IMG/VR virus record: IMGVR_UViG_3300048856_000141
Location: 1-35,785 of that record
Length of the DNA: 35,785 bases
Strand: one strand, 5' to 3'
Source: a virus
Taxonomy: Duplodnaviria; Caudoviricetes
The position numbers were made by a program, and so were the translations under genes. Below, piece after piece: positions 1,857-35,785 of this stretch (within the stretch, counting starts at the first letter, position 1; every line of letters starts with the position of its first letter). The notes beneath the pieces are model-generated. The model saw nothing but the letters and a program-made list of their open reading frames with translations. It did no database searches and was not told the origin of the DNA.

Positions 1857-1937
1857 CCTTCGTTGGATGCATTTACCTGTCGTCCCGTTCGGGCAAGGCC
1901 CGCAAATCCAGCCGCAGCCGGATTTACGGACAGCCGT
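1857..1937 (-). pseudogene. int: 5' relic of a 186-type integrase
   Basis: Overlaps the cI stop, with ACG where ATG is expected. Reads TAVRKSGCGWICGPCPNGTTGKCIQRR, versus the recalled 186 Int N-terminus MTVRKNPAGGWICELYPNGAKGKRIRKK. The rest of the gene is absent. Confidence 0.75.
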
Positions 1938-2512
1938 TAGCCTGGCTCGCTGTAAACGCCCGTCACGCGCCCCAGCGTTTTAATCTCATCGATCCCGCAT
2001 TCAAATACCACTTTGCCGCCGGCGACATGTAATTTTCTGCCCGGCAGCTTAGTCAGCTCGCGAATGCTGATTGCGCCTTCTATATCCACTAACCACACGC
2101 CATCGGCCAGCGAAGCATCCTGCTCAATAAAATAGAGTTTGCCCTCCGTCTGCACGCCGATCGGCCTGGCAAAAGGTTTGCTGAAAAACTTACCGGAGAT
2201 AGTGACCGTGCCCGTGCTGACCAGCGACTCTTCACTTAATGTGAATGTCTCGATTTTCTGGCGATCGTCGACGCCACTGGCCTCGAACGGTGAGCCGTTG
2301 CCAGTAAGCAGCCAGGCAATGCTGGCACCGGTTTCTAACGCGCAATGTACGATAAAGTCATAAGAAATCGAGTCGCGGCTGTATCTGTTCGCCAGTGAGC
2401 TTGACGCGATTTCAAAATGTCTGGCCAATTGAATTTTCTGAGTAAATCCGTAAGCCTCGCAGATTCTGTCCAGCACTTTTTCGTTGTTCAAACCCAGCTC
2501 TTCAATTCTCAT
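1937..2512 (-). CDS. cI: 186-type CI immunity repressor
   Basis: VLDRICEAYGFTQKIQLARHFEIASSSL and WLVDIEGAISIRELTKLPGRKLHVAGGKV closely match recalled phage 186 CI. Full length (191 aa). Confidence 0.93.
   Translation of the reverse strand: MRIEELGLNNEKVLDRICEAYGFTQKIQLARHFEIASSSLANRYSRDSISYDFIVHCALETGASIAWLLTGNGSPFEASGVDDRQKIETFTLSEESLVSTGTVTISGKFFSKPFARPIGVQTEGKLYFIEQDASLADGVWLVDIEGAISIRELTKLPGRKLHVAGGKVVFECGIDEIKTLGRVTGVYSEPG
2230..2246. promoter_or_regulatory. CI flanking operator (FL-like)
   Basis: CTTCAC-N5-GTGAAT inside cI, about 300 bp left of pR. Matches the 186 A-type site ATTCAC-N5-GTGAAT. Confidence 0.7.
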
Positions 2513-2526
2513 TTAGCTTTAACCTA

Positions 2527-2555
2527 TTTACAAACTCCATTTTGGGAGTTAACTT
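2527..2555 (+). promoter_or_regulatory. pR-like early lytic promoter
   Basis: TTTACA-N17-TAACTT between cI and apl, at the 186 pR position. Confidence 0.65.
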
Positions 2556-2631
2556 AAGCCTGAACCGAGCTAATCAATGTCGGATCTTGGCAAACTAATG
2601 TCTGTTAATTGCAATCACTAGCAAACAGGGA

Positions 2632-2660
2632 ATCATGCAACATGGCTTCTGAAATCGCAA
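2632..2660 (-). promoter_or_regulatory. pL-like lysogenic promoter for cI, face-to-face with pR
   Basis: Minus-strand TTGCGA-N17-CATGAT. The -35 lies inside the first codons of apl. Confidence 0.65.
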
Positions 2661-2900
2661 TCATCAAAGTGCCCGCGCCGCTGGTTACTTTGCCGCAGTT
2701 TGCAGAACGGGAAGATGTTTCTCAGCCTGTGGCTTACCGCGGAATAAGCGACGTTATCCCGCGGGCTCCCACTACGCCGTGGGGCGTCTGCAAGGGCAGG
2801 CAGCAGGCAGGTGGGCCAATTCACATCGGTTATGTCCGCTGAAAAGAAGCGTTGTTGCGTAAAGCGCGGGCATTCCTGTGTTCAGCTATACATGAATGAA
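2642..2900 (+). pseudogene. apl: apl (excisionase/repressor) pseudogene
   Basis: MASEIAIIKVPAPLVTL matches 186 Apl. The middle is diverged, TGA at 2840-2842 replaces the expected Trp, and homology continues after the stop (KEALLRKA, then frameshifted GHSCVQL). Confidence 0.8.
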
Positions 2901-3106: not shown

Positions 3107-3490
3107 ATGGCTAACTCAGCGATAGCGGTAAAAACAAAATATGCACCGACACCTTTTACTGAGATTCGTCTGTTACACGCGCGCACCGATAAAATCGAAA
3201 AAATGACCTTTGATGAATTTCGGAAAGCGTGGCGTCAGATGCGCAGGAATAATCTCAATCCGGCGCTGAACTATTTTAATCGACAAAATGAGCAATTTAA
3301 ATTTTGCGTGCTGACGCTGGCTAATCGCGACGCTCCCGGCACATTTAAAAGAGATGAAGTCGGCAGGCCATTTGAATATTTCGACGAACGCCGCCGCGAA
3401 CTGATTATTCATGCGATGAATAAAATAGCGCGCTGGGGACAACTATTGCCGCGTCAGTTTTCAGTGGCCGACGCTTTTTTAACTGAATAA
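3107..3490 (+). CDS. P2/186-type early protein (DUF5347-like)
   Basis: GGAGG RBS, early-operon position, C-terminal DERRRELIIHAMN...LLPRQFS pattern. Confidence 0.6.
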   Translation: MANSAIAVKTKYAPTPFTEIRLLHARTDKIEKMTFDEFRKAWRQMRRNNLNPALNYFNRQNEQFKFCVLTLANRDAPGTFKRDEVGRPFEYFDERRRELIIHAMNKIARWGQLLPRQFSVADAFLTE

Positions 3491-3556
3491 ATAAAACCGT
3501 AATCAATGGCGTAAACCCGCCGGGCATGCTTTTGCCTGAAATCAGGAGATCAATAA

Positions 3557-3784
3557 ATGCGAAATAGCGAACGACATATCGAATGCATTGATGAATCAGC
3601 GTCGATCGCCGTGCTGAACGACGTCCGTAACCATGAACGCCGCCATCGCGCGCGGCAGGTATCGGGACGTCTGTCGGCGCTGGCGCTGCATATCCATACG
3701 CAGGGACTGAACGGCGTTGAGGCCGCCGAACTGCTGCGTCAGGAAGCTGAACGTTATGAAATTGAATCACAGGAACTGCATTAA
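3557..3784 (+). CDS. P2-like early protein (DUF2732-like)
   Basis: AGGAG RBS, LNGVEAAELLRQEAERYE...QELH motif, typical position. Confidence 0.75.
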   Translation: MRNSERHIECIDESASIAVLNDVRNHERRHRARQVSGRLSALALHIHTQGLNGVEAAELLRQEAERYEIESQELH

Positions 3785-4008
3785 TGGCCGACGCGATGGA
3801 TCGGGTACAGGAATGGGTACAGGAAGTGTTGGAACATCAGGTGGCTCAGGCCACCGCCCGTGGCGAGCAGGTCAGTGAGTTTTTCTGTATCGAGTGCGAC
3901 ACGGCGATCCCGGAAGCACGTCGCCGCGCCCTCTGCGGCGTCACGCGCTGCGTCGCCTGCCAGGAGCTGGCGGAGCTGAAAAGCCGCCACTATCGGAGCA
4001 GCCTGTAA
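3784..4008 (+). CDS. TraR/DksA-type C4 zinc-finger protein
   Basis: MADAMD start, CIECDTAIPEARRRALCGVTRCVACQ. Confidence 0.9.
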   Translation: MADAMDRVQEWVQEVLEHQVAQATARGEQVSEFFCIECDTAIPEARRRALCGVTRCVACQELAELKSRHYRSSL

Positions 4009-6068
4009 TGATGCCGCAGTATGCTTACCCGTGGAATGCGCCACGGGAAGCGATTCCCAGCCCGTACCCCACTTATGAAGAGCTATATCGCCGCGAGCAG
4101 CAGATTGCGGCGCTGCTCCATGCGCGCGCATTACTTGAAAAGCAGCCGACTATCGTACAGCTACACGTCAAAGGTTACGTCAACACCCTGGAAAAAACGC
4201 AGGGCGCAGGGCGCGCTAATGCGTACTTAGCGAAGACCTTCGTTGAGCGCATATTGCCGCGCGTTGAACGCGTCAATAAGCAGTATGGCGCGCGCGAGAT
4301 GAGCCGCAGCACCTTTCGCCTGCTGGCTGGCAATAACGGTGCGCAGCCGGGCGCGGCCAGAACGGCGGGCGCCTGGTGGGAGCTGATAAAGCGGTTTAAT
4401 CGTCTGGCGGATATGACGCGTGCGGACGGCGATCTGCTGGCGGAAGACATCGCTCACTTTATGCTGGCGGAGATCGCGCAGGCTCATATCCAGATGCGCG
4501 ATGAGACAGAATACCGCTACGTTCATCGCCTCTATATATTGGCCGCCAGCCTGACGCGCGAGCTGGGCCTGGCGCCGCCGCTGTGGGAAAAAGTGACTTC
4601 ACGCCTGTTCTCGCCGGACGAGGTCGTTCCGGCCATTATGCGGATGCAGAATGCGAAATGGTGGAAAGGGCGTCTGCGTCGCGTGGCGGCGGCGTGGCGC
4701 GAGCATCTGCATATCGCGCTGGCCAACGTCAGTAAAAAGCGCACGCCTTACGCCAGCCCAATGGCGGTGGCGGAATGGCGCGAGCAGAAGCGTCGCACGC
4801 GGGAATTTCTCAAAGGCATGGAGCTGGAGGATGAAGAGGGCAACCGCATCAGCCTGATTGATAAATACCACGGCAGCGTAGCGAATCCGGCGATACGCCG
4901 TGGCGAGCTGATGATCCGCATTCGCGGCTTTGAAAATATCTGCAATGAAATGGGCTTTGTGGGTGATTTTTATACCTTAACAGCGCCCGCCTGCTATCAC
5001 GCCACCCTTAACAACGGCCGCCCTAATCACAAGTGGAACGGCGCCAGCCCAGTGGAAACGCAGCGCTATTTTTGCCGCGTCTGGCAAAAAGCGCGTGCCA
5101 AACTCCATCGTGAAAACATCCGGCTGTTCGGCATTCGGGTTGCCGAGCCGCACCATGACGGGACGCCGCACTGGCATATGCTGATGTTTATGCGCCCGGA
5201 AGATGTGCAGCGGGTGCGCCAGGTGATCAGCGATTACGCCTGCCAGCAGGAAAGTGATGAGCTGATCCCGGCGGCCGCGCGAAAAGCCCGTTTTCATGCC
5301 GAAGCGATCGATGCGCGAAAGGGCAGCGCCACCGGCTATATCGCCAAGTACATCTCGAAAAATATTGATGGCTATGCGCTTGATAACGAACGGGATGATG
5401 AAAGCGGCAAAGCGCTGAAAGAGGCCGCGCCCGCCGTCTCCGCGTGGGCAGCGCGCTGGCATATTCGCCAGTTTCAGTTTGTCGGCGGCGCGCCGGTCAC
5501 GGTTTATCGCGAGCTGCGCCGTCTGGCCGATGGCGAAACGGCGCGCGGAGTGAGCGTCGCGTTCGCTGCCGTGCATGATGCCGCTGATGCGGGCGACTGG
5601 GCGAGCTACGTTAATGCTCAGGGCGGCCCGTTTGTAAAACGCGATCGGCTGGCGGTACGCAACTGGTATCAGGCGCGCGAAGCGCTTAACGAATATGGTG
5701 AAGCCATTGTTCGCATTCGCGGTGTTTACGCATCAGATGTTGGCCCCGATACGCCCGTGTTAACCCGTCTCATCCAGTGGAAAATCGTACCGAAGCGCGC
5801 CGTTGAGCCGGATGCTGCATTGCAGGACGCGGCCGCTTTCTCTTGGAGTTCTGTCAATAACTGTACGGAAAGCGAAGCTCCACCGCTGCGCGATTTCTCG
5901 AAACCGTTAAATAGAGCGGAACGGCGACGGTTAATTGCGCGTTTGCGTAAGGAGGGCAGAATGATCGGTGGAGCCCGGGAGGGGACGATCGACCGCGACA
6001 TGGCGCGCCAGGTCAGAAGATACTTAAGCGCCGGGCCAGCGTTGGCGAATAAAATAACGCAAGGATGA
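4008..6068 (+). CDS. A: Rolling-circle replication endonuclease gpA (686 aa, intact)
   Basis: ATG overlaps the upstream TAA. HUH motif EPHHDGTPHWHML, two catalytic tyrosines in GYIAKYISKNIDG, and WHIRQFQF. Confidence 0.93.
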   Translation: MMPQYAYPWNAPREAIPSPYPTYEELYRREQQIAALLHARALLEKQPTIVQLHVKGYVNTLEKTQGAGRANAYLAKTFVERILPRVERVNKQYGAREMSRSTFRLLAGNNGAQPGAARTAGAWWELIKRFNRLADMTRADGDLLAEDIAHFMLAEIAQAHIQMRDETEYRYVHRLYILAASLTRELGLAPPLWEKVTSRLFSPDEVVPAIMRMQNAKWWKGRLRRVAAAWREHLHIALANVSKKRTPYASPMAVAEWREQKRRTREFLKGMELEDEEGNRISLIDKYHGSVANPAIRRGELMIRIRGFENICNEMGFVGDFYTLTAPACYHATLNNGRPNHKWNGASPVETQRYFCRVWQKARAKLHRENIRLFGIRVAEPHHDGTPHWHMLMFMRPEDVQRVRQVISDYACQQESDELIPAAARKARFHAEAIDARKGSATGYIAKYISKNIDGYALDNERDDESGKALKEAAPAVSAWAARWHIRQFQFVGGAPVTVYRELRRLADGETARGVSVAFAAVHDAADAGDWASYVNAQGGPFVKRDRLAVRNWYQAREALNEYGEAIVRIRGVYASDVGPDTPVLTRLIQWKIVPKRAVEPDAALQDAAAFSWSSVNNCTESEAPPLRDFSKPLNRAERRRLIARLRKEGRMIGGAREGTIDRDMARQVRRYLSAGPALANKITQG
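5842..5866 (+). other. P2/186-type replication origin (gpA nick site) inside A
   Basis: CTTG^GAGTTCTGTCAATAACTGTAC resembles the recalled P2 ori CTCG^GAGTCCTGTCAATAACTGT and lies at the expected position within A. Confidence 0.75.
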
Positions 6069-6134: not shown

Positions 6135-6178
6135 TTCACATTTTTTCTTATTACATGATACTGTATGTTTATACAGTA
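6135..6178 (+). promoter_or_regulatory. LexA-repressed promoter (186 p95-like) with SOS box at 6159-6178
   Basis: TACTGTATGTTTATACAGTA (CTGT-N8-ACAG) overlaps a -10 TACTGT. -35 TTCACA at 6135-6140. Confidence 0.88.
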
Positions 6179-6198
6179 TCTCAATTAGGGGAGGTCTT

Positions 6199-6396
6199 GT
6201 GGGTGACGAGTTGAAGGAAAGCGTTATGCTTGAAAGAGTTGAGATGATTGCGCGATTAACGACCGAGGGCGTTTGCCAGGAAAGAGATCGCGAAATCGCA
6301 TTAGCGTTAATAGCCGAAATTGCCAGAGGGAACCTGATAAAAAGTACTGCCTTTTCCGTTGCCTTTTCTGTTAACCCGCTCAAAAAAAATGATTAA
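6199..6396 (+). CDS. tum: Tum antirepressor, N-terminal domain only (65 aa)
   Basis: VMLERVEMIARLTTEGVCQERDREIALALIAEIARGNL matches the recalled 186 Tum N-terminus. GGAGG RBS, GTG start, directly downstream of the SOS box. Confidence 0.88.
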   Translation: MGDELKESVMLERVEMIARLTTEGVCQERDREIALALIAEIARGNLIKSTAFSVAFSVNPLKKND

Positions 6397-7303: not shown

Positions 7304-7510
7304 GTGATTAAAATTTATGCGCAGCAGGGAGATACCCTCGATGAAATCTGCTTTCGCTATTACGGGCGAACGCAGCAGGTGGTTGAACAGGTTTACGCCG
7401 CCAACCCTGGGCTGGCCGAACGCGGCCCGGTGCTGCCGCACGGCTGTGAAGTCGTGCTGCCGGAACTGTCGGCTGCCCCGACGAGTGAAACCATCAAGCT
7501 GTGGGATTAA
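7304..7510 (+). CDS. X: P2 gpX-like tail protein
   Basis: IYAQQGDTLDEICFRYYG...ANPGLA...LWD. AAGGA RBS and GTG start. Confidence 0.92.
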   Translation: MIKIYAQQGDTLDEICFRYYGRTQQVVEQVYAANPGLAERGPVLPHGCEVVLPELSAAPTSETIKLWD

Positions 7511-7512
7511 AC

Positions 7513-7728
7513 ATGACCACTGAACGAATCAGCGCGTTTATTACTTACTGCATCGCCGTGGCGATGGCGTATCTGGGCAAGATGGATTTGAAAGATATTG
7601 GCACCCTGGCCGGTATTGCGCTGGGCATACTGATGACGGGGATTAGCTGGTATTACAAACGCAAAACCTACCAGCTACTGAAGGCGGGCGCGATTACGCA
7701 GGGTGTCTATGAATCTGCCAATCGTTAA
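7513..7728 (+). CDS. Holin (HP1-family-like)
   Basis: Small hydrophobic protein with SWYYKRKTYQLL, directly before the lysozyme. Confidence 0.85.
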   Translation: MTTERISAFITYCIAVAMAYLGKMDLKDIGTLAGIALGILMTGISWYYKRKTYQLLKAGAITQGVYESANR

Positions 7729-8221
7729 ACGCTGTGCCGTGGGCGCGATACTGGTTCTGGCTGCTGCTGTACCAGAGTTTCAGAGCCTGCACACCTCGGT
7801 GGAGGGGCTGAAGCTGATCGCAGATTTTGAGGGCTGCCGGCTGCAACCTTATCAGTGCAGCGCCGGAACCTGGACCGACGGCATCGGCAATACGCACGGC
7901 GTGGTGCTGGGCCGCACCATCACCGAACGGCAGGCCGCGGGCATGTTTATCACCAATGTGCTGCGGGTGGAATCGGCGCTGGCGCGTTGCGTGACTGAAC
8001 CGCTGCCGCAGCCGGTTTATGACGCGACGGTGTCCTTCGCCTTTAACGTGGGAACCGGCAACGCCTGCGGCTCCACGCTGGTTAAGCTGCTGAATCAGCG
8101 GCGCTGGGCGGCGGCGTGCCGACAGCTACCGCGCTGGGTTTATGTGAAAGGCGTATTGAATCGGGGGCTGGAAAACCGCCGCGCCCGCGAAATGGCCTGG
8201 TGCCTGCGGGGCGCCGCCTGA
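7709..8221 (+). CDS. SAR-type endolysin (GH24 lysozyme)
   Basis: Weakly hydrophobic N-terminal anchor. EGCRLQPYQCSAGTWTDGIGNT catalytic E-C-T motif, SFAFNVG, GLENRR. Confidence 0.92.
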   Translation: MNLPIVKRCAVGAILVLAAAVPEFQSLHTSVEGLKLIADFEGCRLQPYQCSAGTWTDGIGNTHGVVLGRTITERQAAGMFITNVLRVESALARCVTEPLPQPVYDATVSFAFNVGTGNACGSTLVKLLNQRRWAAACRQLPRWVYVKGVLNRGLENRRAREMAWCLRGAA

Positions 8222-8658
8222 TGCGCCCGTTACTGAGCCTGGCCGCCGTAACACTGGCGGCGCTGGCCGGCTGGCGTCTCTGCGCAACCGAACGCGAGCT
8301 AACGCAGGCGCAGCGCGTTATCGGCACGCTGTCGGCCGGGCTCGAAAGCCGCGACAGGACGATAGATCGCTTAACCGCTGAGGCGCGCGAAGCCGCAAAA
8401 CGCGAGGCCGCGCTGCGCCTGCTACAGGGCCGCGCCAGTAGCGCCGCCCTTAACCGTGAACGGCAAATAGAGAGGGAAACCGATGCCAATCCGACGCTGC
8501 AGCGCTGGTCTGCCGCTGCTTTGCCTGCTGACGTTATCCGGCTGCACAGCCGTCCCGCCTTCAGCAACGCCCGCGATTATCTGGCCTGGCTGTCCGCGCG
8601 TGACCAGCTGCCCGCTGCCGGGCAACAACCTGCGAACGCAGGGCGATCTGGCCGCTGA
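8221..8658 (+). CDS. lysB: LysB / i-spanin
   Basis: N-terminal TM, coiled coil, WSAAALPADVIRLHSRP. Confidence 0.85.
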   Translation: MRPLLSLAAVTLAALAGWRLCATERELTQAQRVIGTLSAGLESRDRTIDRLTAEAREAAKREAALRLLQGRASSAALNRERQIERETDANPTLQRWSAAALPADVIRLHSRPAFSNARDYLAWLSARDQLPAAGQQPANAGRSGR

Positions 8659-8776
8659 TAACCGCCAGTTAGAGGCTGCGCTCGTGTCGTGCGGGCTGCA
8701 GATTGAAACCATTAAAGCGTGTCAGGAGCAACATGATGCTAAAGCCAACACAGCTGCGCGAGGCGTTGACCCATAG
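8483..8776 (+). CDS. lysC: LysC / o-spanin lipoprotein overlapping lysB
   Basis: Lipobox LSGC, CPRVTSCPLPG...GDLAAD. Confidence 0.8.
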   Translation: MPIRRCSAGLPLLCLLTLSGCTAVPPSATPAIIWPGCPRVTSCPLPGNNLRTQGDLAADNRQLEAALVSCGLQIETIKACQEQHDAKANTAARGVDP

Positions 8777-9212
8777 CGTTCCGTCGCTAACGCAGAACCC
8801 GGATAGCCTGAAGCTGTTTATTGAGAACGGGCGGGTGGTGTCCACGCAGGCCAGCTCGCTGTCATTTGAATATCAGTACGCGCTGAGCCTGGCTATCACC
8901 GATTATGCCGACGATCCCGATCTGATTATCGTGCCGACGCTGCTCTGGCTGCGTGAAAACCAGCCCGACATGATGGCCAGCAAAGAGCAACGCCTTACCG
9001 GCTTCACGTTCAACATCGATACGTTAAGCGGCTCACTCTGCAATATCAGTATGACTCTGCAGCTGACCGAGCGGGTAAAGGTGACGCAGGAAGACGACGC
9101 ACTGCATATCGCCTATCCGGGCGAGCCGCCGCAGCCGAAAAATGTGGATCGTCCATTGCAGCTTTACGTGCATGGCGAGCTGGTCAGCGAGCTGAGTCGG
9201 GAACCGATCTGA
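8733..9212 (+). CDS. R: Tail completion protein gpR
   Basis: MLKPTQLREAL...LSFEYQY...WLRENQPD...LQLTERV. Confidence 0.88.
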   Translation: MMLKPTQLREALTHSVPSLTQNPDSLKLFIENGRVVSTQASSLSFEYQYALSLAITDYADDPDLIIVPTLLWLRENQPDMMASKEQRLTGFTFNIDTLSGSLCNISMTLQLTERVKVTQEDDALHIAYPGEPPQPKNVDRPLQLYVHGELVSELSREPI

Positions 9213-9251
9213 GCGCTATCAACCACCAGCGCAAACCGTTTTTTCTCTTAT

Positions 9252-9318
9252 TTCTTACCGGTAGCTGAGTAAACAGGCACGAGTAGCGGCATAGCCCGCC
9301 TCTGCGCAAAATGACCTT
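9252..9318 (+). promoter_or_regulatory. Candidate Ogr/B-dependent late promoter pV with leaderless mRNA
   Basis: Dyad TTAC-N10-GTAA (9255-9272) centred 55 bp before the V ATG. -10-like CAAAAT at 9307-9312. No SD sequence. P2 V mRNA is known to be leaderless. Confidence 0.55.
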
Positions 9319-10256: not shown

Positions 10257-10260
10257 AACT

Positions 10261-26528: not shown

Positions 26529-28507
26529 TGAGTCAAATTGATTTTACGCTCAGCCTGATTAAAAAAATAACAGGCCCGTTAAAGCAGGCGAAGGACGCAA
26601 TGAAAAATTTCGCTGACGCCAGTACTCAGGCGTTTGAAAGAATAAATGCTGGCGTCGGTAACCTGTCCGATACGGGCAGCGCGCTCCAGGGCGCGCTGGC
26701 GCCCGCCATCCAGATGTTTAATGCAATGCAGGAGGCTTCCTCACGCGGCATCAGTAGTGATGCATTGGACCGCATCACTAAGCAGGCGATGGATTTTTCA
26801 ATGCAGTACGGCACCGCCGCCGATGAGTATGTCAAATCATCGGCCGCCATTCACGCATCCATCGGCGGCCTGGCCGATGGCGAACTAACGCGCATAACCC
26901 ATATCGCGAATACCGTCGCCAAAGCGGTGGGCGCCACGGCGGAAGAATCTTCAGCGTTTTATGGGCTGATGTTCAATGAGTTTCGCACCACCGCTGATGA
27001 AATGGGGCGCGTGCAGTTTGCGGAGCAGCTGGCCGGACAGATGGCCTGGCTAAGCAATACCTTCAACACAGGAATGGCCGAGATTCAGAGCCTGATGGCC
27101 GGTACGCACGGCGCCGGCGCGCACTACGGCGTTGCGCTTAATGAACAGCTGGCCGTGCTGGGCGAACTGAACAAAACGTTAGGCAGCGAGGCCAGTAGCG
27201 CTTATGCCAGCTTTCTCAGTAATGCGGTCAGCGGCGCGGAAAAGCTGGGCCTGTCGTTTACCGATACCAACGGCAAATTGCTGGCCATGCCGGATATTCT
27301 GCAAAAGCTACAGGGCAAATACGGGGCGTCAATTAACGGTAATTTAACGGCCCAGGCGGAGCTTGATGCGGCTTTCGGCGACAGTGCGGTCGTGATTAAA
27401 CAGCTATATGGCAACGTTGGCACGCTTCAGCGGTATATCACTGATCTGGGGAGAAACGACGGACTGAACCGCGTACAGGAAATGGCCGCGAATATGACGT
27501 CTCCCTGGGAGCGACTGATCGCCGTCTGGAATGTTATTCGCGCGGCGGTGGGCCTGACGCTGCTGCCGGTGCTGTATCCGCTACTGGACACCATTGCTGA
27601 CGGCGGCCAGCAGTTTGCGATATGGATGGAGATGTTTCCAAACATCGCCCGCGTGGTGGGCTATGCGGTGCTGGCGGTGCTGTCATTCTCGACGGCGGGC
27701 GCGGCGGCAAATGTCGTAATAGGCGTCAGTCAGTTGATGATGATCGGCATCAACGCTCTGTGGAAGGGGCTGACCGCCGTCACGAAAATTTATACCGCAG
27801 CACTGTGGGTGGCACGCACTGCGGTGGTCGCATGGAATGCCGTGCTGACCGTGCTGCGCGGCGTGCTGCTGGCGGTACGTATCGCGGCTGTGCTGGCCGG
27901 CGTTTCCATCAATTTTATGAGCTGGCCAATTCTGTTAATTATCGGTGCTATCGCACTGCTGGCGGCGGGCTGTTATCTGCTGATTACGCACTGGGATGAG
28001 GTTAAAGCCGCGGTGATGAACACCGCCGCGTTTCAGGTCCTGGTGAGCTATATCAACTATGTGGCGGGCGTATTCAGCGCTATCTGGAACGGCATCGCCG
28101 CAGGCTGGAACTGGGTGTGTGAGCAGTTTGAAGGCGTTTCGCCGCTGGAAGGGCTGGCGAACGTCGGCGCAGGCATCGGCAACGTGTTCGGCAATCTCTG
28201 GAACTGGCTGAAAGGCGCATTTTCAGAAACCTACAGCTGGATTGTGGACAAGCTGAACATGCTGCCGGGCATCAACATCAAAGCGTCAGCGATTTCCGAC
28301 GGCGGCAGCAGTAAACCGACAATTACGCCGGAGGCGCTGCTGGGGGGCAAGGTGCGCGGCATCGGGCGCGGCGGGCTGGCCGGTGACATCAGCAACAGCC
28401 GCTCGGCGGTGACCGACAACAGCAGAACCATCGGCAGCGTGACGATTAATACTGGCGACGGCATGACGCCGGGCAGGCTAATGGAATGGCAGGAATTAAT
28501 GGTATGA
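26528..28507 (+). CDS. Tape measure protein (659 aa)
   Basis: IDFTLSLI..ITGPLKQ start, EQLAVLG, DKLNMLPGINI, ends EWQEL. Confidence 0.9.
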   Translation: MSQIDFTLSLIKKITGPLKQAKDAMKNFADASTQAFERINAGVGNLSDTGSALQGALAPAIQMFNAMQEASSRGISSDALDRITKQAMDFSMQYGTAADEYVKSSAAIHASIGGLADGELTRITHIANTVAKAVGATAEESSAFYGLMFNEFRTTADEMGRVQFAEQLAGQMAWLSNTFNTGMAEIQSLMAGTHGAGAHYGVALNEQLAVLGELNKTLGSEASSAYASFLSNAVSGAEKLGLSFTDTNGKLLAMPDILQKLQGKYGASINGNLTAQAELDAAFGDSAVVIKQLYGNVGTLQRYITDLGRNDGLNRVQEMAANMTSPWERLIAVWNVIRAAVGLTLLPVLYPLLDTIADGGQQFAIWMEMFPNIARVVGYAVLAVLSFSTAGAAANVVIGVSQLMMIGINALWKGLTAVTKIYTAALWVARTAVVAWNAVLTVLRGVLLAVRIAAVLAGVSINFMSWPILLIIGAIALLAAGCYLLITHWDEVKAAVMNTAAFQVLVSYINYVAGVFSAIWNGIAAGWNWVCEQFEGVSPLEGLANVGAGIGNVFGNLWNWLKGAFSETYSWIVDKLNMLPGINIKASAISDGGSSKPTITPEALLGGKVRGIGRGGLAGDISNSRSAVTDNSRTIGSVTINTGDGMTPGRLMEWQELMV

Positions 28508-28833
28508 CGGAACCCCTCTATATCGATTTGTTAATCACCGAGCGTGATTTCACGCTGAACGCGGGCGCTGAGCCGGAACTGTGCAACAACCGCGTGAGCG
28601 TGGGGCAGGACATTGTCCACGCGATTATTGAAAGCGGCCTGACCACGCGCCTGGTCGCTGAACGCAGCCCGGTGTTACGCGCGGATATTATCACGCAGAT
28701 GGTGCTGCTGATTGAAGATGATGATCGCATCATTCCCGGCACCGTCACCATCAGGGAGGAATCCGCCACAAGGCTGTGGATGACTGCCGAAACCTATGAT
28801 TTTGGGCGCATTTCAATGGGAGCTGACGTATGA
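28504..28833 (+). CDS. Baseplate wedge gp25-like protein (DUF2590-like)
   Basis: YIDLLI..DF.L..G.EP..QDIVHAIIESGL..L.AERSP..ED.RIIPG..AETYDFG. Confidence 0.82.
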   Translation: MTEPLYIDLLITERDFTLNAGAEPELCNNRVSVGQDIVHAIIESGLTTRLVAERSPVLRADIITQMVLLIEDDDRIIPGTVTIREESATRLWMTAETYDFGRISMGADV

Positions 28834-30014
28834 CGGAACGTCCGGTAGTGGATTTTGAAAAGGTACTTTCCGACAGTGGAATGCCGATCGCTGAAGAGGC
28901 GATCAAAGCGGAATTTCAGTCCATCGTAAAGGCGGAAGGGCTGATTACCAACACCTCGCGCATGTCACCTTTCTGGCGTCTGATTACGGCCATCGTTATC
29001 GCGCCGGTCATGCGAATTAAAGAGGTGCTGGTCACCGGCGTGTTGGCGAATATGTTCGTCGCCACCGCCAGCGGACAGATGCTGCGGCTGCTGGCGTGGG
29101 GCGTCAATCTCACGGCGAAGCCCGCAGCGAAAGCGGGCGGCGTAATCCGTTTTTTCAAGACGGACACAAAACAGACGGTAACGGTTAACGCCGGAACGGT
29201 GATTCAGACGGAACGCATTAACGGCATGGTGTACGCGCTGAACGTCACGGCAGATACGACGATTGCGGCGGGCGATGCGGATGCGCTGGTGCCGGTAGAA
29301 GCGGTGGACGCGGGCGGTGCGTACAACCTTGCGCCCGGCTATTACCGCATTCTGCCGGTTGCCGTGGCCGGTATTTCACACGCGGTGAATGAAGATGACT
29401 GGCTGCTGTCGCCGGGCGCGGATGAGGAGTCCGACGATGAGCTACGCGAGCGTATCCGTAATCAATTTAACCTGACCGGCAACTATCACACAGATGCGGC
29501 GTACCGTTCGATGATTGCGGCGGTGGCCGGGCTGAGCATTGACCGTATCTACTTTGAGCATGATGCGCCACGGGGCCCAGGTACGGCGAATGCGTATCTT
29601 CTGCTGGACAGCGGCGAGGCGTCACAGCCGTTCGTCGACGCGGTAAACCGCTACATCAACGATGAAGGCCACCACGGCCACGGTGACGATATGCAGTGCT
29701 TTGCGATGCCGGAAACGCAGCATGAGCTGACCGTCACGGCGTATATCGTTAACCCCGATAACCTGAGCGACGAAGCCCGCGCCGCGCTGCGGAGTGGTAT
29801 AGAAAATCTGGTACGCAGCGCGTTTCGGGAGAACACGGATTATGACGTCATGCGCACCTGGCCGCACAGTCGTTTTTCCTTTTCACGCCTGGGCCAGGAG
29901 CTGCACGCCACGTTTCCGGATATTGATTCGCTGGCCTTTTCGCTGGACGACATCGTCAGTGAACTGAGCGTGCCGCGTCTGAAGTCCTTAACGGTGGAGA
30001 TTGAAAGTGCCTGA
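28830..30014 (+). CDS. Baseplate J/gp47 family protein
   Basis: NTSRMSPFWRLI, PGADEESDDELRER, APRGPGTAN, GHHGHGDD. Confidence 0.9.
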   Translation: MTERPVVDFEKVLSDSGMPIAEEAIKAEFQSIVKAEGLITNTSRMSPFWRLITAIVIAPVMRIKEVLVTGVLANMFVATASGQMLRLLAWGVNLTAKPAAKAGGVIRFFKTDTKQTVTVNAGTVIQTERINGMVYALNVTADTTIAAGDADALVPVEAVDAGGAYNLAPGYYRILPVAVAGISHAVNEDDWLLSPGADEESDDELRERIRNQFNLTGNYHTDAAYRSMIAAVAGLSIDRIYFEHDAPRGPGTANAYLLLDSGEASQPFVDAVNRYINDEGHHGHGDDMQCFAMPETQHELTVTAYIVNPDNLSDEARAALRSGIENLVRSAFRENTDYDVMRTWPHSRFSFSRLGQELHATFPDIDSLAFSLDDIVSELSVPRLKSLTVEIESA

Positions 30015-30579
30015 TTTTGAAAAAATTAAGCTGCCGTCGTGGATGGATCAGGGCGAACCGGCCCGTCTGCTACGCGCCTGCCGGGTGTTCTGGCGCAACG
30101 TGCTGGCGTGGGTGAACTGGCCGCTGCAGCAGCTGGACCCGCTCACCTGCGCGGAACCGCTGCTGAACCTGCTGGCGTATGAGCGCGACATTACCCGCTT
30201 TAACGGCGAGCCGCTGAGCCTGTTTCGTAAACGCGTGGCCTATGCGTTTGTTAATGCGCGGGACGCCGGTTCCGTAGCGGGATTTATCAGCATTTTTGAG
30301 CGGCTGGGCATTGGTTATGCGGAGCTGCTGGAGCGGCAGGAGGGCATTGACTGGGACGTGATCCTGGTGCGCGTCACGGATAGTCAGATTTCCTCAAACG
30401 CGCAGCTGCTGCTGGAGATTATCCGGCAGTACGGACGCACCTGCCGCCGCTATCAGTTCGAAGTGATGACGGTCAACGGGCTGGCGCTGCGGGCGGGCTG
30501 GGATCAGGGCGAATATATCTGCTACCCGGCGCGGTTGGCAGGAACGGAACATAACGCGATGTTTGGTGCAAAAATTTAA
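30007..30579 (+). CDS. Tail protein I-like
   Basis: KLPSWMDQGE, QLDPLTC..LL.LLAYERDI, NARDAGS, YGRTCRRY. The start could also be TTG 30001. Confidence 0.85.
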   Translation: MPDFEKIKLPSWMDQGEPARLLRACRVFWRNVLAWVNWPLQQLDPLTCAEPLLNLLAYERDITRFNGEPLSLFRKRVAYAFVNARDAGSVAGFISIFERLGIGYAELLERQEGIDWDVILVRVTDSQISSNAQLLLEIIRQYGRTCRRYQFEVMTVNGLALRAGWDQGEYICYPARLAGTEHNAMFGAKI

Positions 30580-30588
30580 GGACAAGGA

Positions 30589-32340
30589 ATGAGTCAGACA
30601 GTAATTACAGCCGAATTTGAGCAGTGGAAAGCGCAGCAGGCCGTGAGCGGCGAGGCCATCACACTGGATGAGTTTGTTTTTGCGAACGTGCCGGATCTCG
30701 ATACCGATGCGCCGATTGACCGCGCCGAAGGGCTGCCGGACGCCGCGCTGATTGTGCATCGCCAGGCTGTGAGCCGCACGGGCGTAGTGAATGAAAATGG
30801 TGTGGTCTATTCCGTGGTGCTGGGTGCGGATACCGGGGATTTTGCCTTTAACTGGATTGGCCTGGTGAATAAAGCCAGCGGCACCGTGGCGATGATTGTT
30901 CATGCGCCGCTCCAGCAGAAAATCAAAACCACGGCCGGCCAGCAGGGTAACGTGCTGACGCGCTCGTTTCTGCTGGAATTCAACGGCGCCCAGGCGGAAA
31001 CGGCTATCAATACGCCAGCAGAGACCTGGCAGATTGATTTCACCGCGCGCATGGCGGGGATGGATGAGCGTCAGCGGCTGGAGAATATCGACATTTACGG
31101 TGCCGGAGCGTTTTTTGATAAAGGCTGGCTGGTCGTTAAAAGCGGCGCTCAGTATTCCGTCACCAAAGGCGTGGGCTATGTGGCCGGGCTGCGGGCTGCG
31201 CTGGCAGAAAATCAGGATATTACGGTAACGAAAAAGCCGGTAACGGTCTGGCTGGATGTCTGTTGGCGCGGCACGCTGACCAGCCGCTGGGCGGTGGAAA
31301 GCAAAATAACCGTTGCTGACAGCCTGGCGGATTATGAAAAAGATGGCGTTAAGCATTATGTTTTTGCGCTGGCGAGTATTGATGCGGACGGGAACGTTAC
31401 CGATTTGCGCCCGAAAGGGGCGCTGAGCGAGCAGCAGGCCGCAAGTGATTATCTGCGGAAAGATAAAAATCTGGCTGATGTGTCTGATCCGGCTAAAGCC
31501 TTGGCTAATATTGGCGGAGTTTCAAAATCGACCACGATTAACGGCTACCCGCTATCCGGCAATGTAGCCGTGACCCCTGCGGATGTGTTCGGTGGCACCG
31601 TCCAGATCCGGCCTTCAACTGATTTAAATACACTCACAACGCCTGGCCTGTATTTTCAGCCCGCGAACGCTGACGCGGCTAGCGGGAAAAACTATCCTGA
31701 AGCGAGCGCCGGTTCGTTAATCGTGACCAAACACGCGGGAATGTCGCAAATCTACATTATCTATCTCACTGGCGTTATTTATAGTCGCGGTTTATATAAC
31801 GGGGCATGGTCGGGCTGGCGGCGCATGGCAAGCACAACTGGTGATACTTTCAACGGCGAAATTAAGCTGAATGGAATGAATTGCCTACGCCTATACAACG
31901 GCGATTATGGTCTTATTATGCGCCGTTCGGAAAATAATTTTTATATGATTCCAACGCCGCAGGGCCAGGCCGCTAATGGCGATATTAGCGGGTCGCTGCG
32001 ACCATTTATGATCGAGCTGGCTAATGGCAAAGTCACGATGAACAATGGGGTAACCGTTGGTCAATTCTTGATCGTAAACGGCAATGTGAACATTAATGGC
32101 CAAATTATACCCAGCAATTGGAGCAACTTGGATGCCCGCTACCAATTAAAAACCGGCACAGTTCAACAAGTACGCCTGGGGGCCGCAAAAGACGTATCAA
32201 ATGGTAACGGTAATTTGGCAGACCAGTCCGGCTATGTAGTGACAATGGGCGGGGATTTTGGCTCGGATAACGGTTATTACAGACTGCGCCCTATTCAATA
32301 TCTAATTAACGGAACGTGGCACAATGCCGTTTCTGCGTAA
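30589..32340 (+). CDS. Tail fibre of element 2 (583 aa)
   Basis: Collar-fibre N-terminus (LDEFVFANVP, GDFAFNWIGL, TWQIDFTAR). DLNTLTTPGLYFQ..NYPEA.AGSL knob repeat. Ends RPIQYLINGTWHN. Confidence 0.9.
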   Translation: MSQTVITAEFEQWKAQQAVSGEAITLDEFVFANVPDLDTDAPIDRAEGLPDAALIVHRQAVSRTGVVNENGVVYSVVLGADTGDFAFNWIGLVNKASGTVAMIVHAPLQQKIKTTAGQQGNVLTRSFLLEFNGAQAETAINTPAETWQIDFTARMAGMDERQRLENIDIYGAGAFFDKGWLVVKSGAQYSVTKGVGYVAGLRAALAENQDITVTKKPVTVWLDVCWRGTLTSRWAVESKITVADSLADYEKDGVKHYVFALASIDADGNVTDLRPKGALSEQQAASDYLRKDKNLADVSDPAKALANIGGVSKSTTINGYPLSGNVAVTPADVFGGTVQIRPSTDLNTLTTPGLYFQPANADAASGKNYPEASAGSLIVTKHAGMSQIYIIYLTGVIYSRGLYNGAWSGWRRMASTTGDTFNGEIKLNGMNCLRLYNGDYGLIMRRSENNFYMIPTPQGQAANGDISGSLRPFMIELANGKVTMNNGVTVGQFLIVNGNVNINGQIIPSNWSNLDARYQLKTGTVQQVRLGAAKDVSNGNGNLADQSGYVVTMGGDFGSDNGYYRLRPIQYLINGTWHNAVSA

Positions 32341-32350
32341 AGGGAATTAT

Positions 32351-32893
32351 ATGAGTATTTATAAAAATTTTTCTTTATATACTCCTGATGATGAAGAAAG
32401 AGCCGCTTTATCCGCACAAGGATACACTTTTTATAAAGATGAATGTGGGGGGGATTGGTACGACATTCAAAAAGAGTTTTCAGAGGACACGCTGAAAATA
32501 GCTTACGCGGCCGACGGGCGGATTGACTCAGCATCTTTTGATGTGACGGCTCTTGTGCCTGTAGGGTTATCAGTTGCTGAGATCGAAAAAGATACCATTC
32601 CTGATGGGTTTTGGGATGGCGGACGCTGGGTCTTTGATGGTACGAATATTGTGGCGTATCAGCTTACGCCGAATGAAGTCATTGCGGCAGCAGGCGCGAC
32701 TAAATCGTCGCTGATGGCAGTAGCAAATGAAGCTATTACACCGCTGCAGGATGCAGTTGATTTAGAGATAGCGACCGATAACGAAATCGTATTACTGGCA
32801 GAGTGGAAAAGGTACCGTGTTTTACTGAATCGCGTTGATGTCACTGCCGCGCCGAATATTACCTGGCCGGAGTTGCCTGACGATGTGGCGTAA
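32351..32893 (+). CDS. Tail fibre assembly protein
   Basis: DECGGDWY, TLKIAY, ITPLQDAVDL.IAT..E...L.EWKRYRVLLNRVD...P.I.WPE.P. Confidence 0.9.
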   Translation: MSIYKNFSLYTPDDEERAALSAQGYTFYKDECGGDWYDIQKEFSEDTLKIAYAADGRIDSASFDVTALVPVGLSVAEIEKDTIPDGFWDGGRWVFDGTNIVAYQLTPNEVIAAAGATKSSLMAVANEAITPLQDAVDLEIATDNEIVLLAEWKRYRVLLNRVDVTAAPNITWPELPDDVA

Positions 32894-33605
32894 AGCGCGA
32901 CTGGCGTTTGCTGACGGCGTGGCCGCGCTGCGCTGTTCAGTCGTTCCCGCGCATCCGTGGATTTACGGGCTGGGGCAGCCTGCTGAAACCGGCGTTTATC
33001 TCAGCCCGCAAAACGCCGTGAATTATCTGGCCGGAAAGCTGTCCGGTCAGGCAGACTCCGCTGACGTGGTGGTTTTTATGGTCAGCGCCGATACGCACCC
33101 GGAATTTATGCAGAGCCTGGACGCGATGGCGTCCGTTTTCCCGGTTCCGGCGTTCACGCAGGTACGGCGCCAGGCACAGGCGGCGGCAGAGCTGGCGGTG
33201 ACGCGAATGCAGATCCCGGCAAAAGCGGCAAACGCGCTGCCCGCCGCGCAGCCGCTGTCAGTATCAACCAGCCGTCAGGCCCTTAACGCTGCACGCATTG
33301 CGGCGGCAAAAGCGGAAGCGGGCGCCGGGGCGAGCCTTTCCGGCATGGCTGACGCACTGGCCAGCTTCAGCAAGGCGCGGGAGTCAGCGCTGGCGGGCAT
33401 TAACGATGCGCTGAACGGCCTGAAAGGCAAAAACGCGGACGCGTGGGTATTTACCGGCTCCGGCAGTCTCAACACGCTGGCCACGGCAATGCTGCGGGAT
33501 ATTCCTGCGGCATCGTCTGTTTACTGCGTGGCGGTGATGTTTGTGGGCGAGCTGGCTTCATTAAGGACGATGATTCATGACACAGATAATTACCCTGGCG
33601 CTTGA
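32883..33605 (+). CDS. Conserved HP1-type tail/baseplate protein
   Basis: VVPAHPWIYGLG..G.YLSP.NA..YLA.KL. First of the three terminal genes of HP1-like tail modules. Confidence 0.7.
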   Translation: MWRKARLAFADGVAALRCSVVPAHPWIYGLGQPAETGVYLSPQNAVNYLAGKLSGQADSADVVVFMVSADTHPEFMQSLDAMASVFPVPAFTQVRRQAQAAAELAVTRMQIPAKAANALPAAQPLSVSTSRQALNAARIAAAKAEAGAGASLSGMADALASFSKARESALAGINDALNGLKGKNADAWVFTGSGSLNTLATAMLRDIPAASSVYCVAVMFVGELASLRTMIHDTDNYPGA

Positions 33606-34152
33606 TGGTGAAGCGGTGCCGCTAAAGGATATGAAAGTCTCTGTCACCATGCAGTATCAGGAGAAGGACCAGAGCGGCCAGTCATCCAGTACCGCAAATG
33701 CAGAGCAGGGCATCAAGGCCAAAGAAATGCGCGTGTCCGGTCTGATCCCGTTCAGCAAACCGGAGATTTTACGCCGCCTGTTTGAGCTGGGTTCTGCCAC
33801 CGGCGATAACGGAAACCTGAAGATTTACCGCGTGGCCAACATGACTGCATCAGCAGTAAATTTCCGTGAGGCGACATTTACCGGGCAGATTGATGCGCCG
33901 CAGCAGGACGGGAAAATGGCCTGGCTGGTCTCGTTTACGCTGCGTGAATACGTCAGCGTGCCGGAGAAAAAACAGGCCCGCGCCGACAGTAAAATCACCG
34001 CAAAAGCGCAGGAGCAAAACGGCACAGCGAAAGCGGCTGGCGCAACCAGCGATGAGGAAAACCAGCGCATGTCATGGTTTGAGCGCAACGTGCTGAAGCC
34101 GACTGACGCCGCACTGGGTAAAGTCTTCGGGGGTGACAATGCGGCCAGTTAA
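33577..34152 (+). CDS. HP1-type baseplate protein
   Basis: LALDGE, KDQSGQSSST..AEQGIKAKE, AWLVSFTLRE..SVPEK. Confidence 0.72.
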   Translation: MTQIITLALDGEAVPLKDMKVSVTMQYQEKDQSGQSSSTANAEQGIKAKEMRVSGLIPFSKPEILRRLFELGSATGDNGNLKIYRVANMTASAVNFREATFTGQIDAPQQDGKMAWLVSFTLREYVSVPEKKQARADSKITAKAQEQNGTAKAAGATSDEENQRMSWFERNVLKPTDAALGKVFGGDNAAS

Positions 34153-35785
34153 ACGCCTGTATTTATCCTCTGATGAAATCCATATGGCCGATATGCAGCT
34201 GGTGCTTGAGCTGAGTGCCTGCGGGCGCGGGTTTATTACCGCGCAGACGGAAACGGACTATACCGGCAAAGTGGTCCGTATCGATGCCGGATATTCTGAC
34301 CAACTTTACCGCTGGTTTACCGGCTACGTGGAGCGTTCACAGCCTGCGGAAAACGGCTGCCAGCGCCTGTTTGTGCGTGAGCTGGTCGGCATATTTGATA
34401 AGCCGTGGCCGTGCAGCTTTCAGCATCCCACGCTACGCACCATCACGGACTGGCTGACGGAAAACAGCGGCCTGACGTTTATTCTGGCGGACGGTGCTGC
34501 CTATACCGATAAGCCGATCCCCCATTTCATGCACAGCGGCAGCGGCTTTCAGCTGCTGGCCGCGCTGGGCGCCGCGTTCGGCATTGATGACTATATCTGG
34601 TATCAGCTGCCGGGCGGGGATGTGTTTGTGGGCAGTGCAGCGCATGGCATGTTTGCCGGTAAACCTGTCACCATCCCCGACGAATTCAGCCAGAGCGTGG
34701 CGGCGGGGGATTCCGTGAAGCTGGCGCCGGTACCGTCCCTGCGTCCGGGCGTGGTCGTAAATGAAAAGCGCGTAAGCACTGTCCGCCTGCATAACGACGA
34801 AATGACGCTGACCTGGGCCGCGTCCAGCGGCGTGACGGCGGCAAAAAGCCCGCTGGTCCGGCAGATGGAAAGGGCGTACCCGGAGCTGGCCGGCGGACAA
34901 CATCTGCCGAAATTTGCCCGCGTGGAGGCACCGGCGGAGAACGTGGCCTGCGGTGATATTGCCGATCCCTTTCGCCCGCGCTATGCCGTGGATCTGCAGC
35001 TGCTGGACGCGGACGGCAGGCCCGCCGCCGGTACGCCGGTTTATCCCGCCGTGCCGCTACCGGTGCCGATGGCCGGTAATGAGTCCGGCATGTTTCAGTT
35101 CCCGCCGCCGGGTACGCTGGTCGAAGTGGCGTTCACGGATGGTCGCCCGGACAAGCCGTTTATCCGCCAGACGCTGGCGCAGGGCAACAGCCTGCCGGAC
35201 GTTAAGCCCGGCGAGCAGCTGCAACAGCAGCGCGAGGGCGTGTCACAACGCGTGACAGTGGCAGGAGACTGGGAGCGCCAGACCGACCAGACGATCCGTG
35301 AAACATCCATGAGCCGGATTATCGTCGCTGACGACGAAACCCGCACGCTGGTTGCGCGTGAAACCACGATTCAGGCGACGGATAAAACCACGGTGCTGGG
35401 AACGGCCAGCCTGATGGCCGGAGCCGTTCAGCAGGTGACCAGTGGCGATTACGCGCTGGCGAGCGGCGGTAATCTGGTGACCAGCGTGGCTAATGATGCC
35501 AGTTTGCAGGCGGGTGGCAGCCTGACGGAAAAAATTGCGCAGCTGCGGCAGAGCATCGCCGGGGCGCGGCAGGAAATCATTGCGCCGGTAGTGTGGGTGG
35601 GGAGTCAGTCCATCAACGTGATGCAGCTGATGCTGGAGACGCTGGACGTGGTGCAGCAGCTGGCGGCGCAGACGGCCAGCCATACGCACAGCGGCACGGG
35701 CGCGCCGCAGAACGCCAGCGCTATCAGCGCAACCGGCAGCAGCGCCGCAGGACTCCAGACAAAATATAAACCGGTCATCGGATAG
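34139..35785 (+). CDS. HP1-type baseplate hub/spike protein
   Basis: L.LSACGRGF, DPFRPRYAVDLQLLD, PPPGTLVEVAF..GRPDKPF, C-terminal HTH (His-x-His) spike-tip motif. The stop is the last codon of the window. Confidence 0.75.
   Translation: MRPVKRLYLSSDEIHMADMQLVLELSACGRGFITAQTETDYTGKVVRIDAGYSDQLYRWFTGYVERSQPAENGCQRLFVRELVGIFDKPWPCSFQHPTLRTITDWLTENSGLTFILADGAAYTDKPIPHFMHSGSGFQLLAALGAAFGIDDYIWYQLPGGDVFVGSAAHGMFAGKPVTIPDEFSQSVAAGDSVKLAPVPSLRPGVVVNEKRVSTVRLHNDEMTLTWAASSGVTAAKSPLVRQMERAYPELAGGQHLPKFARVEAPAENVACGDIADPFRPRYAVDLQLLDADGRPAAGTPVYPAVPLPVPMAGNESGMFQFPPPGTLVEVAFTDGRPDKPFIRQTLAQGNSLPDVKPGEQLQQQREGVSQRVTVAGDWERQTDQTIRETSMSRIIVADDETRTLVARETTIQATDKTTVLGTASLMAGAVQQVTSGDYALASGGNLVTSVANDASLQAGGSLTEKIAQLRQSIAGARQEIIAPVVWVGSQSINVMQLMLETLDVVQQLAAQTASHTHSGTGAPQNASAISATGSSAAGLQTKYKPVIG

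Follow-up and report, generated by a model that had tools for sequence, protein, structure and literature searches.

Two head-less contractile tails of different phage lineages side by side: a candidate double R-type tailocin locus

The 35,785-nucleotide virus record IMGVR_UViG_3300048856_000141, which was analyzed over its whole length and is called the window here, carries two contractile phage tails side by side, raising the question of whether one bacterial locus could make and release two different R-type tailocins. A scan of its 59 open reading frames (ORFs) with PHROG and Pfam revealed two full tail sets, both intact. The first, of the P2/186 type (X, R, V, W, J, I, H, FI, FII, E, T, U and D; 7307-21124), lies in element 1 (E1, 1865-21411), and the second (R, DUF2586 sheath, HP1_Orf24 tube, TAC, tape measure, DUF2590, J, I, fiber, chaperone and orf33-35; 23462-35785) lies in element 2 (E2, 21777-35785). 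The sheath of E1 is 93% identical to that of Erwinia phage ENT90, and that of E2 is 68% identical to that of Escherichia phage ESSI2_ev239. None of the 59 ORFs was recognized as a portal, large terminase, scaffold, capsid or integrase gene; the C-terminus of the invertase weakly matches a small-terminase family (E 3e-4), which is explained by its helix-turn-helix. A first-pass annotation of this DNA had proposed two complete tails, 186/P2-type and HP1-type, from different phage lineages and without capsid, portal, terminase or scaffold genes in either element, and all of this was borne out.

The reading that we favor, with somewhat better than even confidence, is that the locus encodes a double R-type tailocin, in which DNA damage fires E1 and the E1 lysis genes release both particles. 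That E1 is a tailocin appears highly probable, and that E2 is a second one, whether it depends on E1 or has its own control, appears fairly probable.

Positions 16000-35785 were found as a single contig with zero differences in an independent assembly of the likely source run. Because this contig crosses the E1-E2 junction, a chimeric assembly is unsupported, though the assembly comes from that same likely run. The gaps at 6727-7307 and 22949-23461 are internal, so that the absence of head genes is not an artifact of the window ends. The sole run containing window DNA is a soil metagenome, which may be its source; no RNA run was listed for this DNA. The proteins of the window map to a JGI contig of 124,572 bases. 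The host is likely a Mixta species; the 90% cluster of the GGDEF protein at the left flank includes Mixta sp. proteins.

E1 has the layout of a head-less 186/ENT90-type tail locus. Compared with the complete prophage at the same site in genome G230, it has lost int (of which a relic remains), cII, portal through L, and S. Its repressor, antirepressor, replication and lysis genes (cI, tum, repA, holin, endolysin and two spanins) are retained, as had been claimed. The accompanying claim that gene loss is complementary between the elements stands as described but overlooks the loss of int, cII and S from E1 and the stop in its apl relic. The G002 record has the same head-less layout and the same deletions at 88-91% DNA identity. 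Between E1 and G002, the ratio of nonsynonymous to synonymous substitution rates (dN/dS) is 0.05-0.23 for 12 tail genes, at a synonymous divergence (dS) of 0.08-0.49, and 0.11-0.49 when gene X is taken together with holin, endolysin and the larger spanin (0.13-0.49 for these three lysis genes alone), a comparison that covers neither the fiber nor the smaller spanin. By this measure, the E1 tail genes are under purifying selection. Of the SOS-linked induction and lysis genes expected of an R-tailocin locus, a LexA box, tum and a lysis cassette lie in E1 and none in E2. R-tailocins have also been defined by the absence of replication genes (review PMC12090994, in its accessible part); this holds for E2, whereas E1 keeps an intact repA under purifying selection, with both catalytic motifs (HUH and YxxKY).

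E2 is an HP1/ESSI-2-type prophage reduced by seven deletions. The complete HP1-type prophage at the same site in G001 consists of int, a PH moron, cI, cox, cII, dam, rep, ogr, portal, terminase, scaffold, capsid, small terminase, L, R, S, sheath, tube, lysis genes, chaperone and the remaining tail. With the complete prophages of G001 and G482 as reference, the gene order of E2 is the same but for seven gaps, which remove (1) int, (2) cI, (3) everything from cII through rep, (4) portal and terminase, (5) scaffold and onward through the bulk of L, (6) the bulk of S, and (7) holin and onward through the bulk of the spanins. Traits of this phage type that are present in E2 include the DUF2586 sheath, the Orf24 tube and orf33-35 after the fiber, and those which G001 and G482 have but E2 lacks or holds as relics are the terminases, portal, scaffold, capsid, L, integrase and the lysis genes between tube and chaperone. 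The seven deletions leave each of the 14 tail ORFs untouched, and also ogr and the late promoter. The late-promoter label is based on position: a profile of 110 distinct spacers between terminase and scaffold from complete prophages matches the retained island (E 6.8e-12), which would act as the late promoter of E2. Thus, the claim that E2 had lost repressor, antirepressor, replication and lysis genes and kept only its activator and tail was right about the losses, but E2 also holds this island, an intact PH/SHOCT-domain moron, and relics of cox, L, S and a spanin.

These relics appear to trace a stepwise domestication, as seven deletions around a retained promoter, and they contribute to the case for selection on the E2 tail. 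No lesion was detected in the 3,984 codons of the 14 tail ORFs versus five in 224 relic codons; at the relic rate, about 89 would be expected, or 29 at its lower bound. A dN/dS comparison of E2 with complete phages (0.05-0.30) was set aside as evidence because it spans phage-era evolution.

The most serious alternative is that E1 is a working tailocin and E2 a silent or fading remnant, either a prophage in which the damaging genes went first and the tail genes are still unbroken, or an earlier tailocin now under relaxed selection. Several observations weigh against our reading, and some of them toward this one. Both tails are known here from their genes, and the case for selection on E2 after the deletions lies in the relic contrast and in protein comparisons. 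Random deletions of the same sizes would spare the E2 tail genes, ogr and the spacer with a probability of about 3e-4, a rough figure that ignores the preferential loss of harmful genes in decaying prophages. The close relative G002 has E1 without E2, and other DNA follows ogr there. An intact E2 was absent from 9 genomes of the genus of G342 and from 75 of the genus of G001, and scans of GTDB, IMG/VR and JGI yielded no second intact E2 with readable DNA. In the synteny and dN/dS check that had been proposed for the locus, E1 is shared with G002 and not neutral, and the indications for E2 are indirect. In a quick sheath tree (66 rows), the E2 sheath clusters with eight proteins that are 78-86% identical to it (support 96), on a branch of 0.16 versus 0.007-0.057 for the three nearest tips. 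R differs at 28 of 115 conserved columns and orf35 carries 52 private changes, so that all three proteins lie on long branches; this change, faster than in most sisters, may reflect relaxed selection. Furthermore, complete and decayed prophages turn over at the site, which is a hotspot, no trigger of E2 is visible at its promoters, and G480 has only a 3' piece of orf35 there.

On the other hand, the relics are aged, with stops, frameshifts and only 38-49% identity for cox and spanin, yet the 3,984 tail codons are free of lesions. The tube, 93-99% identical to seven relatives, has a single private change. True decay also looks different: the prophage of G481 still has head genes but little of its tail, and a Xenorhabdus cassette in G505 (see below) is shattered. 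We regard the remnant explanation as unlikely, though it is the strongest of the alternatives.

The orf35 piece in G480 (G480:C7:76572-77243) is 89% identical to E2, lies between a head-less element and tRNA-Met, and could be left over from either E2 or a prophage related to it. It was set aside as proof of an old E2, because the decayed complete-type prophage of G481 has an equally close orf35 (89%).

How E2 might be switched on is the second point at which explanations part. The first-pass annotation had also claimed one shared trigger and one shared lysis cassette. The locus indeed has a single lysis cassette; since E2 lacks lysis genes and the E1 cassette is intact, lysis is likely shared. 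A shared trigger found no such support: in the window, no LexA box or E1-type palindrome lies at the ogr or late promoters of E2, which also weighs against our reading. The palindrome of E1, which by analogy with phage 186 we take to be a CI operator, has five matches in the window versus 0.61 expected, two of them in E2 and both within coding genes; exact matches occur at the corresponding places in G230, G478, G480 and G002. Direct control of E2 by the CI of E1 or by LexA was therefore rejected and, considering also that E2 has its own conserved ogr promoter (a promoter-like motif common to G481, G482 and G001), any coupling between the elements would be indirect. In the complete relatives G481 and G482, a LexA box is located between rep and ogr, a region deleted in E2. 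The Ogr proteins of E1 and E2 are 31% identical; alignments of E1 late promoters were too divergent for a motif to be defined.

E2 might also be a working tailocin with its own control, through a leaky or host-regulated ogr promoter independent of the E1 switch, and borrow lysis from E1 or any other prophage. The conserved ogr promoter motif and the lack of any repressor agree with this, and so do cassettes in Xenorhabdus which lack lysis genes, adjoin host genes and have no other phage element in the fetched flanks, indicating that adjacency is not required. Constant tail synthesis without release would, however, be costly, and the lysis genes apparently retained in its sister clade are gone from E2, which fits reliance on a neighbor. 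In Pantoea sp. FN0307 and FN0305, the accessions of R, sheath and tube are consecutive and four numbers separate tube from chaperone; an Atlantibacter record has the same total sheath-to-chaperone spacing. The sister clade thus appears to be S-less, with four genes kept at the lysis position, and the consecutive accessions suggest that S was lost first in the E2 clade and lysis later, although a pseudogene without an accession could mislead. We consider such independent control improbable.

The proteins of these two strains (P0042, P0160, P0231 and P0236) belong to a possible stand-alone HP1-type tailocin; its longest contig is not the one reported for the P2-type tube of the strain. Separately, P0036, an Ogr of E1 type, and P0207, an R of E2 type (82-83%), each have a longest contig of 11,549 bases. 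If this is one contig, there would be no room for a complete prophage between them (more than 17 kb in G001), a hint of a second tandem strain.

For the favored double tailocin fired through E1, a reasonable course of events can be proposed. In phage 186, tum is under LexA control and its product inactivates CI (PMC7708051 and PMC3121763, in their accessible parts). With both the LexA box and tum present in E1, LexA cleavage would release tum in the same way; the E1 protein is 76% identical to proteins annotated as SOS operon TUM. Tum would then inactivate CI and free the early genes and ogr (the palindromes lie in cI, in the apl/cII relic and before ogr), and Ogr would activate the tail and lysis operons. 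E1 would stay in place, having no int, and only tails would form because portal, capsid, L and S are missing. The retention of R while portal and L were lost fits the structure of the P2 neck, which contains portal, L and R and in which R is a homolog of the tailocin cap (10.64898/2026.09.14.750843, accessible part). E2 has retained its Ogr, ogr promoter and late promoter, which could run a self-amplifying loop. Indirect coupling is favored because E2 has neither repressor nor SOS box, and its most likely form would be gene dosage: RepA would nick the retained origin in E1 and copy downstream through E2. This origin is likely a 27-mer within repA (5842-5868), identical in G001 and G481. The direction of replication and the dependence of late expression on replication would be those of P2-type phages. 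Finally, the holin, endolysin and spanins of E1 would lyse the cell, and the two particles would differ in length (tape measures of 811 and 659 amino acids) and in fibers, broadening the range of kin killed.

A third explanation, that the tails are parts for others (tail or fiber donors to the heads of another prophage or satellite, or decoys disturbing the assembly of related phages), could draw on the retention in both elements of R, the binder of head adaptor L in P2, on complete relatives circulating at the same site and on possible head genes elsewhere in the host genome, as the analysis covers the window alone, but it is very unlikely given that both elements lost S, L and portal, that R changes faster than other tail genes in head-less lineages, that intact fibers, an invertase and an SOS-linked lysis cassette fit the release of free tails, and that Pantoea head-less elements at this site have been shown to kill (bioRxiv 10.1101/2023.05.07.539753, accessible part).

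Those Pantoea elements, the pantailocins of P. ananatis and P. stewartii, are head-less P2-type elements at this very site (same source). Like them, E1 is a head-less P2-type element located between fadH and tRNA-Met/rpoD and closely related to phage ENT90, and it matches their frequent association with an invertase and further prophages at the site. Unlike pantailocins, which are said to lack it, E1 keeps repA, and the accessible part of the report describes no HP1-type partner such as E2. The position of E1 was inferred via relatives sharing the GGDEF flank; in G031 and G480, the flanks contain a fadH-like gene, rpoD and dnaG. The site between the GGDEF gene and tRNA-Met is a prophage integration hotspot. 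Within the genus of G342 (nine genomes), it is occupied by head-less elements in G478 and G480 and a complete prophage in G230, and holds remnants or is empty in G476, G477, G342 and G475; the contig of G479 ends inside cI, and the stretch fetched from G419 has no phage match. Eight head-less elements at the site were found in the genus of G001 (G006, G009, G011, G012, G015, G031, G051 and G057), in genomes preselected as head-less-looking, which therefore give no frequency. A quick tree of V, W, J and I (28 rows, without published pantailocin sequences) groups E1 with the complete and head-less elements of the host's genus in G230, G478 and G480 (99), away from a six-genome clade (100) that likely represents the pantailocins. 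Hence, E1 as a direct pantailocin ortholog is unsupported; E1 is pantailocin-like in site and design, but its placement in the tree indicates that it was likely domesticated in parallel, or recombined.

RepA is kept over about 620 residues or more in the integrase-less head-less elements of G009, G011, G012, G031, G051, G057, G478 and G480 as well as in the window, although replication genes are commonly described as absent from tailocins.

Two R-tailocins of different origin with one lysis cassette are known in Pseudomonas chlororaphis (PMC12090994) and P. protegens CHA0 (PMC7815802), and fused double R-tailocin clusters are discussed in PMC4684702. The window, judged from its genes, resembles these clusters in having two R-type tails of distinct phage origins in one locus with one lysis cassette. 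As far as the accessible parts of these reports go, the two Pseudomonas tails form one fused cluster flanked by regulatory and lysis genes that serve both, with a PrtR-type regulator in control, whereas in the window each tail has its own Ogr, lysis lies inside E1, and the lineages are 186-type and HP1/ESSI-2-type. E2 shares its gene order and families with the HP1/K139/ESSI-2 branch of Peduoviridae (Cronobacter phage ESSI-2 and Escherichia phage ESSI2_ev239; sheath 67-68% identical) but, unlike those phages, has neither int nor cI and is missing its replication and lysis genes, S and every head gene. Our literature search, with most subscription papers and supplements outside its coverage, found no tailocin assigned to this lineage and none from Mixta. 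Accordingly, the novelty tentatively suggested for the locus is narrower than it seemed: double R-tailocins with shared lysis are known in Pseudomonas and head-less P2-type elements at this site as pantailocins, and the new part is the HP1/ESSI-2-type tail.

Head-less cassettes of the same type were also detected elsewhere. Among 195 HP1-type sheath/tube loci fetched (193 with both genes; many are near-duplicates), a capsid gene is present in 160 of the 170 sheath loci with at least 4.5 kb upstream. The ten without one comprise eight Xenorhabdus loci, L064 and L320. L320 is a viral contig with int upstream. The metagenome-assembled L064 (L064:2891-20652) lacks the head and S, has frameshifts in int and J, and retains the promoter spacer along with cI, cox, rep and lysis-region genes, among them a spanin; it is a possible intermediate or decaying copy.

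The eight Xenorhabdus loci (L020, at 8651-21101, L021, L022, L023, L027, L032, L061 and L072) contain ogr, the promoter spacer, R, sheath, tube and chaperone, and lack S and lysis. A continuous match across the lysis gap was observed in 10 of 36 Xenorhabdus genomes searched, several of them culture-collection (DSM) strains, with 38 weaker matches not listed. The cassette occupies one chromosomal site, beside an MFS transporter and near a fadH-like gene (also G491:C1:581800-594516 and G514), and nine of the ten matches share a contig with the same transporter gene. Median dN/dS among the eight loci is 0.02-0.17 at dS of 0.6-1.1, and the best matches are free of stops; for two host genes in the flanks, the values are 0.07-0.08 at dS of 1.2-1.4. 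The cassette is therefore a candidate second tailocin of the genus, apparently under purifying selection, so that the selection on tails suggested by the first-pass annotation finds support in E1, in E2 and here. In the sheath tree, these loci fall beside Xenorhabdus and Photorhabdus prophages and distant from E2, indicating that this head-less design arose separately. The cassette also gets lost: a copy in G505 (G505:C1:3993793-3998320) is shattered, with deletions and three stops in the sheath match, a picture of neutral decay, and ogr alone remains in the stretches fetched from G495 and G499, the latter near a contig end. Its ogr is inverted relative to the phage (L020:8450-8650 and matching stretches), and most of the eight loci have a conserved motif about 120 bases upstream of ogr; no LexA box was seen.

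The tailocin locus described in Xenorhabdus is xnp1 (PMC13280938, PMC11566119 and 10.1101/2025.04.19.648921). Xenorhabdicin (xnp1/xbp1) is a single P2-type tailocin, a remnant with CI, a DinI-like gene, Ogr and variable fibers that is collinear with the pantailocin locus (PMC13280938). The HP1-type cassette lies at a different locus and is unmentioned in the accessible text of that paper, whose Fig. S1 lists 16 prophage clades and may include it.

Taken together, we tentatively suggest that HP1/ESSI-2-type prophages may have been repeatedly domesticated (in Mixta, in Xenorhabdus and perhaps in Pantoea sp. FN0307) into "passenger tailocins," which consist of Ogr and tail, carry neither repressor nor SOS box nor lysis genes, are produced and set free once another element of the cell fires, and in the window are switched on by in-place replication from the neighbor's RepA and origin. 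If so, a second tailocin would have gone unnoticed in roughly one in four Xenorhabdus species, and a cassette in 10 of 36 genomes could alter the reading of killing spectra in that genus. If E2 is indeed a tailocin, the HP1/ESSI-2 lineage would join the known sources of R-tailocins, the double-tailocin design would extend from Pseudomonas to Enterobacterales, and a second, unrelated scaffold with its own fibers could be useful for narrow-spectrum antibacterials.

Table 1. Features of the window, with the evidence for each
Feature	Position	Strand	Evidence or remark
GGDEF diguanylate cyclase (host gene)	1..1434	+	Pfam PF00990; left flank of tRNA-Met integration hotspot, outside both elements; flank recurs in related genomes
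E1 integrase relic, ~25 codons	1865..1937	-	DNA match to int start in complete prophage of G230
E1 CI repressor, 186-type	1937..2512	-	PF07022 and PF16452; dN/dS 0.095 vs G002
CI-operator-like palindrome	2231..2245, 2904-2918, 21115-21129	.	In cI, in apl/cII relic, before ogr
E1 apl relic with stop; cII missing	2630..2866	+	49% to Apl of G230
E1 small early genes (unknown, DUF2732, DksA-like; three genes)	3107..4008	+	PHROG/Pfam
E1 RepA (gpA), intact	4008..6068	+	PF05840; dN/dS 0.145
LexA box (6161-6176) and Tum antirepressor (6199-6396)	6161..6396	+	Sole exact LexA box in window
E1 gpX, holin, endolysin, two spanins	7307..8776	+	Only lysis cassette of the locus; PHROG/Pfam
E1 tail terminator R, baseplate V, W, J, I, fiber H	8736..12717	+	S absent; PHROG/Pfam
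E1 invertible fiber segment and invertase (14213-14830)	12374..14830	.	Three related sites near 12374, 13760, 14130
E1 sheath FI, tube FII, chaperone E, tape measure T (811 aa), U, D	14871..21124	+	PHROG/Pfam; dN/dS 0.05-0.23
E1 Ogr/B late activator	21193..21411	+	PF04606; palindrome upstream
E2 PH/SHOCT-domain moron, intact	21777..22346	-	73% to gene between int and cI in complete HP1-type prophage of G001
E2 cox relic	22407..22637	+	Two in-frame stops
E2 Ogr activator (22685-22948) and own conserved promoter-like motif upstream	22685..23007	-	PF04606; 77% to G481
E2 divergent late-promoter island, putative (terminase-scaffold spacer)	23132..23238	.	Between two deletions; 85% to G481
E2 relic of head-tail adaptor L	23322..23444	+	Match to complete prophages
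E2 tail terminator R	23462..23950	+	PF06891
E2 relic of gene S (neck)	23977..24139	+	Frameshifted
E2 sheath (DUF2586, start 24156) and tube (HP1 Orf24)	24156..25765	+	Sheath 68% to ESSI2_ev239
E2 spanin relic	25784..25940	+	Frameshift and stop; place of holin, endolysin, spanins in complete prophages
E2 tail chaperone and second frame, tape measure (659 aa), DUF2590, J, I, fiber (583 aa), fiber chaperone, orf33, orf34, orf35	26074..35785	+	PHROG/Pfam

The fiber segment of E1 contains two alternative (spare) tips and one chaperone on the strand opposite to the current fiber, an orientation also seen in the complete prophage of G230. In the likely source run, contigs are interrupted at 12374 and 13781, and depth drops between those sites; in G002, the invertase is frameshifted. 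The fiber tip of E2 is only 34-48% identical to known phage fibers. The PH/SHOCT moron of E2, which is possibly a defense or exclusion gene, has homologs beside int in G001 and G230. Neither an att core nor a tRNA was found inside the window, tRNA-Met lying outside it. The region at 1510-1740 on the minus strand, beside the GGDEF gene, encodes a 76-residue host protein without an NCBIfam match, which is 85-99% conserved in the genus of G342 and has a dN/dS of 0.04 versus G002.

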